Made by a program: the position numbers and the translations under genes. The notes below the pieces were generated by a model. The model was not told where the DNA came from and searched no databases. It worked only from the letters and a program-made list of their open reading frames with translations. 64,000 bases of DNA from Leptogorgia sarmentosa (Eukaryota). This document shows positions 2,027 through 34,050 of the stretch, one piece after another (positions within the stretch are counted from its first letter, which is position 1; each line of letters begins with the position of its first letter). Location of the stretch: the NCBI GenBank assembly GCA_964658305.1, contig OZ210885.1:22692001-22756000 (forward strand), given 5' to 3'.

Positions 2027-4548
2027 TTGCACTATCCTTGGATTCCTAGTTCCTCTTCCTCCTCCAGTAGTGAGGATGAAGCTGGTCAAGTGTGCAAGAA
2101 AGTCTGCACGTCTGCTCCTGCTCCTCCGAGTCCGTCAAACGCTAGCATGTGGCCGGAGTTCCCGAGCCCTCCTACTCCAACTGCCACTCTTGAGGCCATG
2201 GAGGCTGACGTGGACAAGTGCTTGAGTGGTGATACGGTCGTGGACCCTATCGTCGCTCACGAATCTGCACCTGCTCTTGCCTCTACTGAGCCAGCCGGAT
2301 CCCCGGAGCGTATGGATGATGCTCCCGTGCCTTGTCAGGCTGATGTGGACGATGATAATGCTGCTTTGCAGGATCCTCCTGCAGTGGATGTCTCGTCCCA
2401 ACAGTCTGAGTCATCCCTTGATCTTTTCGAGGCACTGGCAGCCATCCATGAAGACTCACTGTCTCGTCTTTGCATGACGAGACTTTGCAACTCTACTCCC
2501 AAGCGTGCATCTTTGACATGCACGACTTTTAGTGATCAGCTTCGTGCTGATCAACTCGAGGAGCTCCTTCTTGGTGAACTGCCCACTTCTGGGACATCAG
2601 ATTCCGATGGTGAGTCTGATGTCCATTAACATCAACGGTCTTAACGACCGTGTTAAACGAACCGCCCTGGTGGATTGGTTAAAGTGTATGAAGGTGGATG
2701 GAACCTACGCACCCCGACTTGTCTGGAACAGTATATTAGGGAATGTGAATACCATCCCTCCTTATCGGATCATCAATACTTGCTGGTCAAGTTACAATTT
2801 GGTGATCGTATTGCTAGTGGTCCTGGAGTGTGGAAGTTTAATACTTCCCTCCTGGACGACAAAACCTATTGCGCCCTTGTCACTTCTTTTTGGTCCTTCT
2901 GGCAGGCCCATTATACACCTGAGGCCTTTCCCTCCATTTTGGATTGGTGGGACCAAGGGAAGTTCTACCTTTAGAGAAGTGACACGCAATTTTAGTCGGT
3001 CAAAGGAGCTGGACCGGCGTGAACATAAATCCTTTCTGACCAAGCAAATGCACAGACTGCAACGTCTTTTTGAAGCAGGGGATACCTCTGCATTCGCTAA
3101 GCTTTGTGAGGTACAGGAAGAGCTCCGAGGCATTGCTTTGCATGAAGCTAGAGGGGCACAAGTTCGTGCTCGCTGTCAGTGCGCTGAGGAGGGGGAAACT
3201 TCCTCCTCCTTTTTTCTCAATTTAGCCACTAAGCGACATGCAAAGCAGGAGATGCACTCCATTCGAGACCCTGACACCGGTTCCGTGCGCCACAACCCTT
3301 TTGAGATCTTAGACGTCTGGCGGCGGTATTACACCGGACTCTTTACTGCAGCACCCTGCGATACATCTGCTCAGGATGAGATGCTGTCAAAGCTGTCTCG
3401 TCGCCTTAGTAAGGAGGAACGTGCGTGTTGTGAGGGTCTTCTCTCTTTAGAGGAGTGCTTTACTGCCTTATCTGGTATGGCTAGAGGAAAGACTCCGGGT
3501 TCCGATGGCTTTCCCATGGAGTTTTACCTCAAGTTTTGCTCATGCCTTGGCGCTGATCTGGTTCGCGTCCTCAACGTTGCTTACGAGGCCGGCCAGCATT
3601 CCACCTCTCAGCTTCGAGGTCTGATCATAGTACTATACAAAAAGAATGACCGCTTGGAGACAAAGAACTGGCGGCCGATTAGTCTGCTCAATGCAGAGTA
3701 TAAAATAGCTACTCACGCTATTTCAGGTCGTCTCCTAGCCGTCATCGGGTCTGTTGTAGGGCCAGATTGGACATGCGGTGTTCCAGGCCGTACCATCTCA
3801 GAGAACCTCTTTCTGATCCGTGATCTAATTGAGTATGTGGAGCATGAGGACATCCCCCTCACTCTGCTCTCTTTGGATCAAGAAAAAGCATTTGATCGGG
3901 TCAATTGGGGTTTTCTTTTGCGGACTCTGGACACCATGAATTTTGGTCCGGATTTCTGCCGATGGGTAAAATTGTTTTACTCCGACGTTGAATCGGCTGT
4001 TGTTATTAATGGCTGGACCTTCTCCTTTTTTCGCCCTTCACGGGGTGTGCGGCAGGGTTGTCCACTTTCTCCACTATTGTACGTTCTGTCGATTGAGGTG
4101 TTAGCGGCTAACATCCGCTCTGCCCCAGGTATTACTGGTGTTTTTCTCCCTCAATCGCTGGAACAGTTTAAATGCTTTGGGTATGCCAACGATACGACGA
4201 TTGCTCCTACTATGGAAGAATCGATCGAGGCCACCTTCGAGGTATATTCTCAGTTTGAGAAAGCCTTGGGTGCTCGTCTGAATCGCGGCAAATCTAAGGG
4301 CATGTGGCTGGGCTCCTGGAAGCACCGTACCGATACCCCTCATGGTATCCAGTGGGTTAAAGAACTCCCATTACTTGGTGCAACCTTCAGTGCCGCTGAC
4401 TATAGTCAGCCGACCTTCGAGCCAGCCGTTTCCAAGTTGGAGAAACGTTTGTCAGACTGGTCTGGACGCAAACTGTCCTTTGAGGGCAAGGCCACAATTA
4501 TCAACACCTTGGCCTTGTCCCGGATATGGCACTTGTGTCACGTCCTTT
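2027..4548 (+). mobile_element. Degenerate Tx1/L1-clade LINE: ORF1 C-terminus (to 2629) and ORF2 from ATG 2607, with partly deleted APE endonuclease and an RT domain
   Basis: Motifs 'SININGLND', 'SDHQ', 'GPGVWKFNTSLL', 'EEGETSSSFF', 'KTPGSDG', 'WRPISLLN', 'LDQEKAFDRV', 'GVRQGCPLSP'. The catalytic YADD is mutated to YAND. Frameshifts present; homology stops abruptly at about 4548. Confidence 0.9.
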
Positions 4549-5025
4549 TAAAGAAAAAGAGCCAGGGAACGGATATGTTGGCCCACCGACCTCAATCCGC
4601 AACACGGAATGCAAAAAAAGAACCTAATAGACCACCGACCTTTGAGTTGTCCCCAAACAGACTCCTCGACAGGTCACACACAAGAAGAGCTATTACCCAC
4701 TAGCTAATAAAAACAATAAAAAACACTGTAATGGGCGGCCCTATGCTGTGTCGCGTGCTAACCGCGCAACAAACAGTAGGAAAGACTACCAATCGAGTTC
4801 CAAAGAACCAGAAAAGCAGTCCAAAAGAAAACGAATGGACTAACTGCTACCTTGACACCTATCCAAGTAGGCCGGCCAGACAGCGGGAAGACAGAACAAA
4901 GAAGAAGGCGTGTCTGCAAAAAGAACTGCAGCTAGTTGTAAACCTTGCGAGCAGAGTTACAGGTCCATGTTCCTGAGCATAGATCCTCTACTGCAAGGGT
5001 GAAGAACCTGACACGACAAAGACGG
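4549..5025 (-). mobile_element. Non-coding element with a Tx1-like 3'UTR, fused directly after U1 nt 17
   Basis: 4587-4636 resembles the 3'UTR of the Tx1 at 18617-18661 (cgacc(t)caatccg..aacc(t)aata..gaccacc). T-rich on the minus strand, no recognisable ORF, several stems. Confidence 0.55.
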
Positions 5026-5042
5026 TCGCGTCAGGTAAGTAT
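5026..5042 (-). ncRNA. U1: U1 snRNA 5' fragment (nt 1-17), disrupted gene copy
   Basis: Minus strand ATACTTACCTGACGCGA is identical to the U1 start at 17200-17184 and has the same upstream flank. Confidence 0.9.
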
Positions 5043-5478
5043 GACTTCATGGCGCATACAATTACCTTTTATACGCTGCAACCGTGAGGAATGCTTGTGG
5101 AATGAATGCATGGGGATGAGTTTGTCTGTCGATAGATGGATCGATTGATCTCTCGGACTGCACCGTGTTTGCACATTCCGACAATTCTCGACCCGCATAT
5201 TCAATATGAGTTTACAAAAAATTCCATGAATGTAAATCTCATGAACAGCGATGCTGTTTTGTTGGCCAACGAGCTACGCAAGACTATTATAACATGAATG
5301 TGTTAGGCTGCTCACCATGCAAGTATAAATTCGTGGTCGGTCATCCGCAATGAATGCGTCATATATACGTATTTCCTGCCAAATCGCGATGATCAATCTG
5401 TAAGGGCAAGAATAATTTGTTAGAGTTTTGAACTGATAGTGAGTGAGAAATTTTCCCCCAATAATGAAATTGGGGAAA
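5043..5478 (-). repeat. U2-to-U1 intergenic spacer of the snRNA array, containing the presumptive U1 promoter
   Basis: Highly similar to 17201-18114 once the insertion at about 17536-17979 is removed. Lies between a U2 3' end and a U1 start in both copies. Confidence 0.85.
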
Positions 5479-5650
5479 GTGGGCCGTACTCAGCGGTAGT
5501 GCAATACCGAGACAAAAATCCGATGGCCAAGGCGAAGCAAGCTTCAATCCTATGGCCGAGGTCCAAAAATCAGTTTAATTATATGAGTTAGGACATTGCC
5601 TAACATATCAGATATTAAGCTGATAAGAACAGATACTACCCTTGATCTTA
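5479..5650 (-). ncRNA. U2: U2 snRNA gene from nt 22 to the 3' end, 5' end displaced by a retroelement
   Basis: Minus strand TAAGATCAAG(G)GTAGTATCTGTTCTTATCAGCTTAATATCTGATA, Sm site GATTTTTGG, stem-loop IV with ATTGCAC loop. Confidence 0.95.
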
Positions 5651-17166: not shown

Positions 17167-17200
17167 GTTGATCAAGGTGCCTCTCGCGTCAGGTAAGTAT
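17167..17200 (-). ncRNA. U1: U1 snRNA 5' portion (nt 1-34)
   Basis: Minus strand ATACTTACCTGACGCGAGAGGCACCTTGATCAAC: the 5' splice-site-pairing sequence and the SLI 5' arm and loop. Confidence 0.95.
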
Positions 17201-17535
17201 GACTTCATGGTGCATATGATTACCTTTTATACGCTGCAACCGCGAGGAATGCTTGTGGAACGAATGCATGGGGATGAGTTTGTCGTCTGTCGATAGATGG
17301 ATCGATCGATCTCTCGGACTGCACCGTGTTTGCACGTTCCGACAATTCTCAACCCGCAAATTCAATACGAGTATACTAAAAATTCCATGAATGTAAATCT
17401 CGTGAACAGCGATGCTGCTTTGTTGGCCAACGAGCTACCCAAGACTATTATAACATGAATGTGTTAGGCTGTTTACCACCATGCAAGTATAATTCGTGGT
17501 CGCTCATCCGCACTGAATACGTCATATATACATAC

Positions 17536-17979
17536 ATATTATACCTCAAATTCAAATTGTCCAATGAAAACACAGCATTTGTACCACGTGATAGTGTGAT
17601 TTCTTACGGTATTTCACTCAAATTCATGATTTTGCAATCCAGCGTGGGATACTATAATATCCCCTGGCAGATACACCGTGGGATATTATAGTATCCCACG
17701 CTCACGCGTGGGCAACACGCGCCTAGCATAGCTAATTAGCTATGCAAAATGGCAGGCGAGCAAGACTCGGACGAAGAAATAAATAGACTTCTTGAAAACA
17801 ATGATGCAAAAATGTTTTGTTCGGTATAATATATCATTTATAGACCCTCCGCTCGGGGGATTCGGCGCAATATTTCCCTCAGTAATGATATTTTCCTCGG
17901 GGCAAAGCCCCTCGGAAAATATCATCACTTCGTGAAATATTACGCCGAATCCCCCTCGCTCCGGGTCTATAAATGATAA
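17536..17979. mobile_element. Non-autonomous element with a terminal palindrome, inserted in the U2-U1 spacer
   Basis: Absent from the other spacer copy (empty site near 5370). Palindrome of about 145 bp at 17831-17978 (tatcatttatagacc...ggtctataaatgata). Confidence 0.8.
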
Positions 17980-18114: not shown

Positions 18115-18281
18115 GTGGGCCGTACTCGGAGGTAGTGCAATACCGAGACAACCCATGGCCAGGGCGAAGCAAGCTTCAATCCCATGGCCGAGGTCCAAAA
18201 ATCAGTTTAATATATGAGTTAGGACATTGCCTAACATATCAGATATTAAGCTGATAAGAACAGATACTACACTTGATCTTA
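18115..18281 (-). ncRNA. U2: U2 snRNA gene from nt 22 to the 3' end, disrupted by a Tx1 LINE
   Basis: Minus strand TAAGATCAAGTGTAGTATCTGTTCTTATCAG with intact GTAGTA branch-point pairing sequence, Sm site and SLIII/IV. Confidence 0.95.
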
Positions 18282-21200
18282 TTTTGAGTTGAATGACGAC
18301 GGGCTTGTCGACTCCGACGGTGCAATGGAACCTGGACCCAAACAAGTCGCCGCACCCAGGGGGTCACTACAGGTGACGCGGATCGACGGGTCGTGAGCCC
18401 CTCCCCCGCGCCACGATGCAACCGTGAGTGGCCTGAACGATCCGGTGCTATCCACCTTCACGCCCAGGAATCCCTAACCTAATGATGATGAAATGGTCAG
18501 ATGATGATGTTAAACTAGACGATTACAACATGAGCAGCAACCCCTAGATCAAAACCTGTGCAACCCACTCGGAACAAGTCCAAGGGAACCACAGGGCAAA
18601 AATTGAAACAAACAGACGACCCAATCCGATACAGGCAGTACAACCAATAAAGGCGACCACCAGATCTTCATGGGAGGACAAAGCGAACCAACATTAAAGA
18701 TAAAAACAAATGTGCTGTCCAGTCCAAAGACAACTATAAGAAAACAAACACGTCCAGAAGGCGACGACAGTACAACCACTGAAGGCGACCGTCATGCCCC
18801 TAGACCACACTATTTAAGAGAAAAGGGAGGAGAGAAAGGAGGAAGGAAGAGAAGAGAATCAAGTGATGAAATCACGTGTGAATCTGATCCAGTCCTGCTC
18901 TGTTAGCGTGCCTATAAGTCCGTCTGCCAGCCACTCACAAACAAACCGGTGCCGAGGGCAGTGGTGCTTGTGCATACGCACCAGAAAGCGGAAGGTGGTC
19001 TTAGCTTTCTTCAAAGTGGTGGTGACATCTGGGTTGACATGATCAAACCGACAGGTGTTGCGGTTAAGCCAGATGTGGTGACGGAGCACCCCAATCAGAG
19101 CGGAGAAAACACTGAACACCTCGCAGTGTGCAGCGAACCCAAACAGAATTTGATCTGTCGGCAACGCAGGAGCGGACAGACAAAATTTTAGGTACTGGCC
19201 ACGAAACCAAGACCAGAGAGAGACAGAGAACGGACAACTTGTAAAGAGGTGTAAAAGTGTTTCCTGTTCCCCACAGAAACACAACTCGCATACCAAAGCG
19301 GACCAGTCTGTTAGCTGTTGGTAATATGCCATGGAAATTCAACCAGGCCGTATCCTGAACCGACCGGACAAACCGCCAAAGGTGAAGGCTCGCCCACGCT
19401 GCTTGCCACGGTACATTGATGCCCCAGTTGCGATACTTAGCGACGGAACGGTGCTCGGTAGTCGAAGAGCGGCGAAGAAGGGAGTATGCCGTACTGGCAG
19501 TTAGCTCTTCAAAGGGAAGTAATTGCCCTGAAGGACGAGGGACAACCCATACGCCCTGATCGTTTTGGCCATGCAGAGTGACCCACGCGGAAAGTACACC
19601 CCTATAACATAGGGGAAGTTTTTTAATTAAATAGGCTGGAATCGGACCCGAGCCAAAACGTCAGCAACCGACTGACCAAACACTAGCTCAATATGGTGGG
19701 GAAAAAAGCAGGACCATGGGTGCATGTGGTTAGCAAAAAAGCGACGGAGCCAAACGGCACGAATGGACAAGATCTTATTTGAGATGTCTACAATGTTAAA
19801 CCCACCGTCTCCGATGGGCTGGACCACGGATGTACGTGCCATCCATTCGCGCTTTTTTCCCCAAACAAATGGAAAAATTATTTTATTGATTTAAGCTATG
19901 GTCATTTTTGGCAGGTAAAAAATTGTTGCTTGGTACCAGAAGAGCGACAGCCCCAAGGTATTTACAATAAGCGCTCGGCCCCTAAAAGACAACTGACGCT
20001 GTTTCCATATCGACAATTGCTGTTCTAAATTCGCTACCAAAGTGTCCCAGTCGGCAGATTCGACATTGGCAATCCGACACCCCAACACAGTTATGGCGTC
20101 ACTGGACCAATTGAGCTGTACGGGTAGGTCAACTCTATTCTTCCAAGATCCAAAAAGAAGACCATGATATATATAGCTTTTAGCTATATTCAATTTGCAC
20201 CTGACGCTCGTTCATATTTTTCAAAAAGGGAAAAGAGCGACTGCAGGGCCTGCTCGGAGCGAACAATAATTGAAGTGTCGTCGGCATACTGAAAAATTGA
20301 TGGTCTCTCCATTGAACATTTGGAAACCGTCAATATTGAGGTCCTTTTTTATTGCACACGAAATGGTTTCCGCCACAATTATATATAGCAAGGGAGAAAG
20401 AGGACACCCTTGACGAACGCCGCGAGTATTACCACATTACAAAACCATTAACAAAGATGCGAGAAAAAATGTTGGTGTACAGGAGTTTGACCCATGCACA
20501 AAAGGACGGACCAAAATGCATCTTTTCCAAAGTGCGTAACATAAACCCCCAGTCAACTCGATCAAAGGCCTTCTCTTGATCTAATGATATTATGGCACCA
20601 CCAGTATTGTGGCGATTGCAAAAATTGACTACATCTTGTAATGCCCTGATGTTCAGCCCGGAAAACTGTCCAGGAACACCACAAGCTTGAGATTCTGAGA
20701 TAACAGAAGATAGCACTACTTTAAGGCGATTGGTAAGTACCTTAGATAAAATTTTATAATCTGTGCATAAAAGGGAAATGGGCCGCCAATTCTTGACATC
20801 CAAGCGGTCATTTTTCTTAAAGAGGAGGGAGATTAACCCAGTTCGCTGTGAAAAAGAAAGGGCACCTTGTGCCATGCAATCATTATATACTGCAACTAGA
20901 TCAGGTCCCAAAATGTCCCAGAAGGATTGGTAAAACTCGTATGACAAACGATCAAGACCCGGAGACTTATTGCGCTTGAAGGAATTCAATGCTCGCTGGC
21001 ATTCAGTTAATGTGACCTCTCCTTCACAAAGCTGGGCTTCTTGAGAAGAAAGAGATTTATCTAAACTATTGATGAAAAACGACTCATCCGGGTGAGATAA
21101 AAGAGATGATGAAAAAAGTTGAACATAAAAAAGGCACCAAATTTGTAAAATCGCAGAAACAGATCTTACTATAGTACCGCGTGCATCGCGAATGCCTGTA

Positions 21201-31066: not shown

Positions 31067-34050
31067 GAATTACGGTCGTTTCGCCAACGAGTCGTTTCGC
31101 CAACGTCTCGGGTCGATTCGCCAACGTCAAATTTACTCATAAAATACTATCTACAAATGAATATATTCATTTGCAGATAGTATATATATACTCGCGCAAA
31201 AAGAGTACCAATAATGATTTATTCCATGTTATGTAGTCAATGGCATCAATACTCTTTTTGCGCGACCGTGATGAATAGTTAATCGGAACGATGTTGGTAT
31301 TAGAAAAAGGTTCACAGTGACTAGTTCACAAGTCAGACAACCAATCGAAATACCTGAAAACTATATTATTTACTATCTACAAATGAATGGAAAAATTGTT
31401 CGAAGACCATATGAAAAAATTTATGTTTGAAGCAAAACAGCGGAACTATATTGGACGATTCAGTTGCAATTATGACATATTACATTTTTTTATAACAATA
31501 CTGCAGAAAACTCGCGTTTTGCTGAGGAAGTATTGTTTACATTAACAAAAATATTACGACGAGCCCTAGGATTTTCTTATGTGATTAGGGGGTTTGGAAA
31601 GAACATGTTTATGTTTTGATGTATTCCATATAGACAATAGTCAATATAGACAATACACAATAGTCTTTTCAAACACCCATGGGTGATGTTATGATCAACC
31701 ATGACCCAGTAACCTACCATGTTGTAGAGAATGGGACGAAAAGAAGAAAAATTAGTTTGGTAGACAGTGTTGGTTTCACCTACAATGTCCATTCAAAGAG
31801 GACATGCGCAACATACTGGCAATGCACCATGCGACCAAAAGGCAACCCATGCAAAGCATCAGTTATAGAAAGAAACAGATCATTTCAAACAGGAAAATCC
31901 GTCCACAATCATAGTGTGGAGGCTGGTGCTCTAACTGCAGCGAAAGTAGTTGCTGAAGTAAAGAGAAAGGCATTAGAGGAAAAGTTTACACCCGCCTCAG
32001 CTATTGTCGAGGAGGTAAAAAATCTTCTTCTGTTCTTTAATCTATAGCTTTTGATATATATATCAGTCACACCAAAAACTAATAAAAATCTGCTTGCTTT
32101 TTTACAACTAAAGGTTTTTCTCAACAAGCTTCATGAAGAAGATCGCCGGCCCTGTGCTGCATTGCCTAAACCAGAGCATATAGCCAGGGCAGCCAATAGG
32201 CTGAGACAAAAGCTTCGGCCTGAAGATCCAAAGGATTTGGAGAAGAAGAAAATCTGCCAACAGGATTCCTTCAGGCAGATTTAAAAGTGAAAGACCGCCG
32301 CCATCTAGTTTTCGCCAAGAAGGAACAACTAGCAATACTATGTAAAACTAAGACATGGTACATTGATGGTACTTTCAAGCTAGTTCGTCACCCTTTTAAA
32401 CAGCTGCTGACAATCAATTCCTTTGTAAGATCTGGTGACCACATCAAACAAGTTCCATTTGTTTATGTTTTGATGTCAGGACGCAAAACGAAGGATTACA
32501 AGAAGGTATAATATAAAACTAAACTCTCAACTGTCTAAAGCAAATGAATACTTATATCTTAAGCATTCTCTCTTCAATAGGTTTTGCAAGCAATTATTGG
32601 TATTTTGCCAACGGTAATGCAAGTGAAGAAGATCACCGTAGATTTTGAAGCTGCTTTGTGGAAAGCTTGCAGATCAGTTTTGCCCTGTGTAAAACTACAG
32701 GGATGTGTCTTCCATTGGACTCAGGCTCTTTGGCGAAAGGTAAATAGCGGCAATAGGGATGCAGGAACGATAAAAGGGCAAGGAAGGGGCCAGATCATAG
32801 GTAATCTATACAATTTCATTTCGTTTATTTCAATTTTTGATATACTTTCTCTACAGATTCAACAATTTGGTCTCCAGACTGCCTATGGTGAAGATGATTC
32901 AATTTACAAATATTTAAGAAAACTTATGGCACTCCCATTCCTACCACATGCTGAAATTCGACCCATGTTCATGTCACTAAGTGGACGTGCTCAAAATCCA
33001 CCTTTGTCTGACTTGGTGACATACATCCAGAAGCAGTGGATCGATAGTGAAATCTTCCCCCCTGCTAACTGGAGCATTTACCAGCAAGCCATAAGAACAA
33101 ACAATGATCTGGAGGGTTGGCACAATGCTCTCAACAGACGTGCTGGCGGAAGAAGCAACTTGCCTTTTTACCATATGGTGGAGATTTTAGAAAAAGAAGC
33201 TAGACTGACTGCAGTCAATATAAGACTGGTAAGTGAGCCTTTTAGGATTATGGGTGATTACAAAAAATAGGCTACCCCTATAATATTATGATTTCTATGA
33301 ACCATTCTTAAGCTCTTGTCTACTCACAAGGTGTCGGAGAAAAGCTGAAACGGATTCAGAGGAAGACCTACAGGAACCTACAGGAAAAGATTTTTGAACA
33401 ATGGGGTCTATACAAAAATGGCCGGAAAACAGCAGCTGAACTATTGAGGTTTTGCTCCCATATTAATGGACCAGCCCGGGGATAAATTGTAAATATTTAA
33501 AATTCATTAGTGTTTATAAAATATTGTATCAATTCATTTAATTGTAAATAGTACTTGCCTGTTTGTGAATAAAATGTAATATGTCATAATTGCAACTGAA
33601 TTGTCCAATATAGTTCCGCTGTTTTGCTTCAAACATAATTTTTTTCATATGGTCTTCGAACAATTTTTCCATTCATTTGTAGATAGTAAATAATATAGTT
33701 TTCAGGTATTTCGATTGGTTGTCTGACTTGTGAACTAGTCACTGTGAACCTTTTTCTAATACCAACATCGTTCCGATTAACTATTCATCACGTTCGCGCA
33801 AAAAGAGTATTGATGCCATTGACTACATAACGTGAAATAAATCATTATTGGTACTCTTTTTGCGCGAGTATATATTTGCGCGAGTATATATATACTATCT
33901 GCAAATGAATATATTCATTTGTAGATAGTATTTTATGAGTAAATTTGATGTTGGCGAATCGACTCCGAGACGTTGGCGAAGCGACTCGAGACGTTGGCGA
34001 ATCGACCCGAGACGTTGGCGAACTGACAGTTGGCGAAACGACCGGATACC
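31067..34050 (+). mobile_element. MULE DNA transposon with TIRs of about 420 bp
   Basis: Inverted repeats at 31067 to ~31488 and ~33570 to 34050 with ttcgccaacg sub-repeats. TSD AAATAGGG at 31059-31066 and 34051-34058. Confidence 0.9.
31679..33485 (+). pseudogene. FLYWCH-MULE transposase, multi-exon, frameshift near 32250
   Basis: Motifs 'TYWQC...CKASV...HNH', 'WYIDGTFK', 'VDFEAALW', 'GCVFHWTQA', 'RTNNDLEGWHNALN'. Confidence 0.9.

Follow-up and report, generated by a model that had tools for sequence, protein, structure and literature searches.

The U1 snRNA gene that starts at 5042 (minus strand) in the window, the 64 000-nucleotide stretch of Leptogorgia sarmentosa DNA analysed here, is interrupted after nucleotide 17 by a non-coding element that is complementary near its start to the U1 bases before it. 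The gene retains its native promoter context, the nucleotide-17 junction recurs in other samples and the same U1 target site is occupied in another animal. We consider it probable that the element represents the 5′ end of a non-LTR retrotransposon of the Tx1 clade that had entered a native U1 gene at its start, and that the stem formed there has been kept. Taking the parts of this reading separately, the identity as a U1-site element of this kind is very likely, and the balance tilts slightly towards selection for masking of the U1 5′ end, as judged from predicted folds; the U1 target is well supported and a functional lock is plausible.

The interrupted U1 gene and the body of the element

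The window contains two units of a U2–U1 snRNA array, 92–94% identical to each other, and all four of their snRNA genes are interrupted. The features around the element are as follows.

5474–5650, minus strand: U2 snRNA from nucleotide ~22 on, in the upstream unit of the U2–U1 array (Rfam U2, 106.5 bits)
5043–5371, minus strand: native U1 upstream region (promoter side), 92% identical to 17184–17534 before the second U1 gene
5088 (start), minus strand: PSE-like motif, 46 nt before U1 +1, with the same motif at 17246
5026–5042, minus strand: U1 snRNA nucleotides 1–17, including the 5′ splice-site-pairing bases (nucleotides 3–11); the second U1 gene begins identically
4546–5025, minus strand: element body, 480 nt, non-coding (T 37%, A 16%), with no long open frame
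4542–4545, no strand: rearrangement break, at which the element meets a plus-strand Tx1 ORF2 tail-to-tail with 3 nt of microhomology, GTC (loose ends at 4546/4542 and 4544)
2607–4544, plus strand: Tx1-clade ORF2 fragment Tx1-B (endonuclease remnant and reverse transcriptase), broken at residue ~822 of 1181 (RVT_1, E 1.7e-29; 85% to P0001; placed by tree)

In the second unit a Tx1 ORF2 with its tail (Tx1-A) lies directly before U2 at 18281 and a 9.3 kb DNA transposon divides U1 at 17200; an element with a single long ORF (7124–5805, minus strand) precedes U2 at 5650. Linkage of U1 and U2 is reported for Acropora in the accessible part of PMC8167085, and the closest named protein matches of the window are from Paramuricea clavata. 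Contigs of native U1 genes diverge from the window sequence exactly at 5026. Because the U1 head has its own upstream region with a PSE-like motif (a label given from its position) and stands in the U2–U1 order of the array, it is the native gene and not a retroposed head. The initial annotation had considered both a U1-specific element placed behind the U1 promoter and a SINE-like element with a U1 head in the sense of SINEU. The former is borne out by more than 300 nt of native upstream region and by the neighbouring U2 gene. Dispersal through the genome as a short, SINEU-like retroposon with a U1-derived head is very improbable: it would fit the non-coding body, a diverged copy (~90%) outside a U1 gene (X1 record 3, X4 record 30) and the U1 heads described for SINEU and some Tx1-Mar elements in the available text of PMC4494074, but the native sequence and U2 gene precede the head in the same order as in the second array unit, no poly(A) occurs within 480 nt while other copies run on, and the off-target copy starts at 5013 with neither U1 head nor promoter.

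Other copies were compared in contigs of four of the 20 matching runs (X1–X4; 32 records listed and 406 more unlisted); none of the 20 is an RNA data set, which carries no information on expression. Among the records listed, the U1/element junction is bridged by at least 31 letters on each side in two of the four runs (X2 record 14 and X3 record 23), which carry two organism labels from one study; X4 record 29 has 30 letters there, one short of the threshold. The junction is thus neither that of a single copy nor unique to the window. Three sequence variants over 4842–4986 in X1 (records 3, 5 and 6) suggest several loci, contig depth giving no copy number. Ten loci emerged from a metagenome scan for self-complementary U1 heads, and by blastn not one of them resembled the window; the element DNA had no match in any of five MAG records or in the fetched loci. 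The viral contigs contained no Tx1-B relatives and one U1-motif match without a U1 gene behind it, and U1-motif searches of ten further records gave no U1 gene.

The element reads on past 4546/4542 in other copies from all four runs, and in X2 and X3 the plus-strand Tx1-B ORF2 extends beyond 4544 without leaving its frame, as it does in P0002. The window copy is therefore truncated at 4546 and, since both partners continue in other contigs, the break at 4542–4546 is a rearrangement of the window locus; the end of the element had previously been placed at 4549. Tx1-B adjoins the element in inverted orientation through this rearrangement, and none of the listed contigs joins the two in sense; Tx1-B is a possible but unproven parent. 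The median ratio of contig depth between the element and the Tx1-B ORF2 is 0.73–1.57 in the four runs, a weak hint, as depth is not copy number. We infer that the body is either a 5′ UTR or the beginning of a non-autonomous Tx1 derivative. Assignment to the 5′ UTR of Tx1-B itself is tentative, a non-autonomous derivative is somewhat doubtful, the 5′ UTR of another Tx1 element is unlikely and an origin of any other kind is very unlikely. No 3′ end, target-site duplication or linked ORF was found for the family in the window copy and the listed contigs, and no transposase was found in the element.

The T-rich body had initially been likened to a Tx1 3′ UTR. An ordinary 5′-truncated 3′ UTR, joined once to U1 nucleotide 17, would share its T-richness with Tx1 3′ UTRs in general, but it is hardly credible given the same junction under two organism labels. 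The body shows no alignable likeness to either Tx1 tail of the window (scores equalled by 39 and 17 of 100 shuffles), the common trait being T-richness only, and the label is unsupported because the 5′ UTRs of U1-targeting Tx1 elements in another animal (G001, described below) are equally T-rich (33–43% T in seven of seven, with lengths of 189–797 nt). At 480 nt or more it also exceeds the five G001 3′ UTRs measured (235–425 nt), and the window copy (497 nt with its U1 head) has neither an AUUGCAC loop nor a poly(A). An ORF2 C-terminus in the body was rejected, since a tblastn comparison with 120 Tx1 ORF2 proteins gave none in frame and only weak matches (E 0.3 or worse). Twin-priming was rejected on geometry, the forward piece adjoining the 5′ flank, and a ribozyme was rejected with no Rfam match up to E 5 and no match to our own HDV descriptor, which was used without a positive control.

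Several further insertions occur in and near the array. The 9.3 kb transposon (17166–7843, minus strand), which we take to be MuDR-like, has terminal inverted repeats of ~160 bp and a 10-bp duplication, CTTGATCAAC (U1 nucleotides 25–34), and its ORF pieces match the SWIM, ZSWIM RNaseH-like and ALS2CR8 families. Two palindromic insertions, MITE-like by shape, lie in the U2–U1 spacer of one array unit (17832–17978 and 17641–17702) and are absent from the other, and an element of ~2.9 kb with near-perfect terminal inverted repeats of ~400 bp is located at 31088–34027. Tx1-A (18281) and the one-ORF element before U2 at 5650 both join U2 at nucleotide ~22 on the minus strand, with no U2 5′ piece upstream of either junction; this position differs from the Keno/Utopia site at nucleotides 38/39, which is used by the U2 elements of G001, and is a possible new target site. 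The tail of Tx1-A (18428–18285, minus strand) contains the PSE-like motif of the U1 promoter ~45 nt before a GC-rich structured stretch, and a promoter of the snRNA type may be located in the 3′ end of Tx1-A. The motif ATTGCAC is found in predicted hairpin loops of Tx1 tails at 18326 and 5700 of the window and in G001 contigs (L083–L090); these loops resemble U1 stem-loop II or U2 stem-loop IV, the U1A/U2B″ site.

Predicted fold-back over the U1 5′ end

Two hairpins are predicted in the element.

5006–5036, minus strand: 12-bp hairpin, U1 nucleotides 7–17 and the first element base against element nucleotides 26–37 (folding, shuffles)
4998–4943, minus strand: second, long hairpin (z = −2.5, equalled by two of 200 shuffles)

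The arms of the first hairpin, ACCTGACGCGAC (5036–5025) and GTCGTGTCAGGT (5017–5006), enclose the 7-nt loop CGTCTTT and form 12 bp with one G–U pair, as originally described. The first 143 nt fold with z = −4.18, equalled by none of 200 shuffles, and opening of U1 nucleotides 3–11 costs 9.9 kcal/mol, a value that none of 100 shuffles of the body reaches. A helix of at least 11 bp with U1 nucleotides 1–17 was formed by 17 of 20 000 random 37-mers drawn from 23001–64000 of the window. The hairpin is intact in X4 record 29, in which the seven differing letters are all located at 4967 or below.

The stem covers the ACCUG of the splice-site-pairing sequence, again in agreement with the initial annotation, and leaves U1 nucleotides 1–6 single-stranded. 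From the established U1 pairing we take nucleotides 7–11 to read splice-site positions −3 to +2. A consensus splice site would gain ~4–7 kcal/mol on the folded RNA versus 14 kcal/mol on the free head; with this residual gain and with nucleotides 1–6 free, the predicted masking is strong but partial. The predicted hairpin would thus mask nucleotides 7–11 and leave nucleotides 1–6 exposed.

The second hairpin contains the three further stems noted at the outset. All three are present, as parts of one long hairpin of modest significance, but the inner TCTATG/CATGGA stem loses a pair elsewhere, as position 4967 differs in all four runs. Behind 4935 the structure is no greater than in shuffles (11 of 100 as good). 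Covariation is not detectable among the listed copies because they are too similar, being mostly 96–98% alike over the 5′ region.

The U1 start as a target in another animal

Host-derived animal contigs inside a bacterial MAG record (G001) were found by a profile scan with Tx1-B. Five of these contigs, which were reached through their Tx1 matches and are not a random sample, carry a 5S–U2–U1 array full of Tx1-clade elements, and ten of their 20 promoter-side U1 starts are chimeric. All 13 tail junctions read AAA followed by U1 nucleotide 3, and the 5′ junctions, by manual reading, follow U1 nucleotides 11–19; the target is therefore cut near nucleotides 2/3 with duplication of the head. The site is common to autonomous, ORF1-only and non-coding elements, the last being 1.0–1.9 kb long. 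No shared sequence was detectable between the window element and the G001 elements, and in a quick tree Tx1-B forms its own clade, separate from the U1-targeting ORF2s of G001. The link between the two is one of target site and design, not of homology.

Related loci were seen elsewhere. Several bacterial MAG records (L012–L058) are contaminated by host contigs, of animal origin, that bear snRNA arrays and Tx1 elements. The native U1 genes of G002 are close to those of the window, with no chimeric 5′ junction among 12 motif matches, and its Tx1-B relative (L012) is without both ends. Other animals (L022, L026 and L027) have a second Tx1 lineage targeted to U1, with 5′ junctions near U1 nucleotide 25 and tails that join near nucleotide 38. 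Two sister Tx1 elements (L083, 17400–18236, minus strand; L014, 1–130) have in their long 5′ UTRs a short block of structure in common, together with several motifs that resemble 5′ splice sites; the L083 5′ UTR gave no convincing Rfam match and that of L014 contains tandem repeats.

Twelve distinct G001 heads were compared: seven of group A, three of group B, one of group C and one that is 5′-truncated. Within the first 90 nt, the best duplex with U1 nucleotides 1–11 has an energy of −7.6 to −10.6 kcal/mol in all 11 full-length heads versus −2.8 to −5.1 kcal/mol in all six U2-targeted controls and −5.0 kcal/mol in the truncated copy, and the same 11 heads rank 25–275 of 500 against their own shuffles. 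Predicted pairing of nucleotides 3–9 is reached by at most ten of 200 shuffles in six of the 11 heads versus none of five U2-element controls. It is not significant in L022 or in L026, which has a short complement to its own U1 nucleotides 7–15. By opening energy, none of the 12 G001 heads and neither of two G003 heads beats its shuffles (11–84 of 100). Pooling of lineages gives p = 0.004, but this value is the most favourable among the measures tried and derives from related sequences. The window copy is itself unremarkable on the duplex measure (286 of 500) and on nucleotide 3–9 pairing (21 and 64 of 200), because its stem covers nucleotides 7–17 and not 3–9. Support is thus moderate, and dependent on the measure, for the statement that most G001 heads can pair back on U1 nucleotides 3–9 by means of different sequences.

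The groups reach this predicted pairing in different ways. In group A, 46 of 49 cells are paired at U1 nucleotides 3–9, and the four one-sided changes are all from U–A to U–G. Group B pairs nucleotides 4–9 and 14–18, with covariation that is not significant (181 of 500; three sequences). The single group C element is autonomous; its 5′ UTR measures 797 nt and its short fold-back closely resembles that of the window copy. In groups A and B the complement lies 40–65 nt beyond the junction, with other stems in between. Pairing also extends past U1 nucleotide 11 in groups B and C and in the window copy, further than a plain splice site would require.

These comparisons bear on the view, raised initially, that the fold-back is an artefact of integration. 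A pure one-off artefact is unlikely. It could instead be that, in the same U1-targeting Tx1 element, the hairpin is the snap-back or template-switch scar of one ancestral integration, passively copied and functionless. The 3′ arm is almost an exact inverted copy of U1 nucleotides 7–17 placed 7 nt from the junction, the close similarity of the listed copies hides any covariation and the G001 heads are individually weak by opening energy, all of which such a scar would accommodate. We nevertheless regard it as unlikely, since three G001 lineages complement U1 nucleotides 3–9 with different head sequences while the U2-targeted controls and the 5′-truncated copy do not, and a snap-back would not yield the complements that groups A and B place so far from the junction.

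A role in retrotransposition or RNA fate rather than in splicing safety is more doubtful still. The stem would then protect or mark the capped 5′ end, or GGURAG motifs would recruit U1 snRNP in trans for mRNA-like elongation from an snRNA promoter. The complementary motif of group A doubles as a canonical 5′ splice site with the potential to act in trans, and that of group C likewise fits the 5′ splice-site consensus. TTGCAC lies at most 130 nt from the tail junction in 13 of 13 G001 U1 elements versus none of four Keno-site U2 tails, in loops like U1 stem-loop II that point to wider use of U1 snRNP proteins; it is also present in a tRNA-adjacent element (L020). The window element, however, has no strong splice-site motif at its stem, and its complement spans nucleotides 12–17, which is useful only in cis.

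Relation to known elements and a possible mechanism

The nearest parallel is Keno, described in the available text of PMC4494074 and PMC4640811 as a Tx1-clade LINE specific for U2 snRNA (nucleotides 38/39) and present in cnidarians. Both Keno and the window element are inserted at a fixed site in a multicopy spliceosomal snRNA gene, and a Tx1-type ORF2 adjoins the latter and is part of its G001 analogues, all 13 of which also share the Keno-like poly(A) end followed by the rest of the target. The window element differs in its target (U1 nucleotides 2/3–17) and in keeping the splice-site-reading bases of U1 as a head that is paired back, a stem that does not appear in the descriptions of Keno available to us. 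SINEU-1, -2 and -3 of crocodilians are portrayed in the accessible part of PMC4494074 as having heads gained by template switching, poly(A) ends, a preference for Mariner-N4 and no known promoter. U1-derived 5′ sequence on a Tx1-related retroelement is common to SINEU or U1-headed Tx1-Mar and the window element, but in the latter this sequence is part of the target gene itself and has the gene's promoter in front of it; SINEU elements are also shorter than ~500 bp with a 3′ poly(A), while the 497-nt window copy lacks one and other copies are longer.

R2 and its non-autonomous SIDE derivatives in 28S rDNA are promoterless, are co-transcribed with their target, keep target bases on their RNA and have a uniform 5′ junction, according to the sections of PMC3774820 and PMC3414825 available. 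By analogy, the window element as proposed would work similarly, and non-autonomous derivatives at the same site are matched in G001. It differs in being an APE-type Tx1 element in which no HDV-like ribozyme was found; if its RNA starts at U1 +1, no ribozyme would be needed. Dada-U1, a DDE DNA transposon with a 6-bp GCGAAT/GCGAAC duplication deep inside U1 (PMC3706591 and PMC8869645, in part), belongs to another element class, and the window element has its junction at nucleotide 17 rather than at the Dada site and no transposase; the 9.3 kb transposon of the window also differs from Dada-U1 in insertion site and terminal inverted repeats. The accessible text of PMC4640811 gives Dada-U1 as the sole U1-targeting transposon and names no U1-targeting non-LTR element. 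The literature searched contained neither such an element nor a masking stem; Repbase, the original 2004 description of Keno and the tree labels of Fig. 3 and supplements of PMC4494074 lay outside the search and could hold a U1-targeting Tx1. Within that literature, the combination of a U1 target and a fold-back head appears to be new among target-specific Tx1 elements.

By analogy with G001, the target would be cut near U1 nucleotides 2/3 and nucleotides 3–17 duplicated, so that every copy would carry the U1 head. Driven by the U1 promoter, RNA polymerase II would begin transcription at U1 +1 and proceed into the element, giving an RNA that begins with U1 nucleotides 1–17; its cDNA would anneal to the target and yield a uniform 5′ junction, as has been proposed for R2 in the available part of PMC3774820. 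The head would then fold back, with the first 20 element bases covering U1 nucleotides 7–17 and burying the bases that read the GU of the splice site. The RNA would thereby compete less with U1 snRNP and pair less with host 5′ splice sites.

More speculatively, coral-type genomes could harbour a LINE lineage launched from U1 promoters that has repeatedly evolved a cis-acting `anti-U1 lock' together with AUUGCAC tail loops mimicking the U1A site. Its RNA would be a disarmed mimic of U1, making use of snRNA transcription and snRNP proteins while leaving host splicing undisturbed. For LINEs inserted at U1 +1 there would be a direct and testable answer to the question of their promoter, namely the promoter of the target, and they would face a hazard absent from U2 elements, a capped RNA beginning with the sequence that reads 5′ splice sites. 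If the stem is selected, it would represent a way in which a parasite restrains, at the RNA level, the damage that it does to its host, and would help to explain how a long polyadenylated RNA arises from an snRNA promoter.
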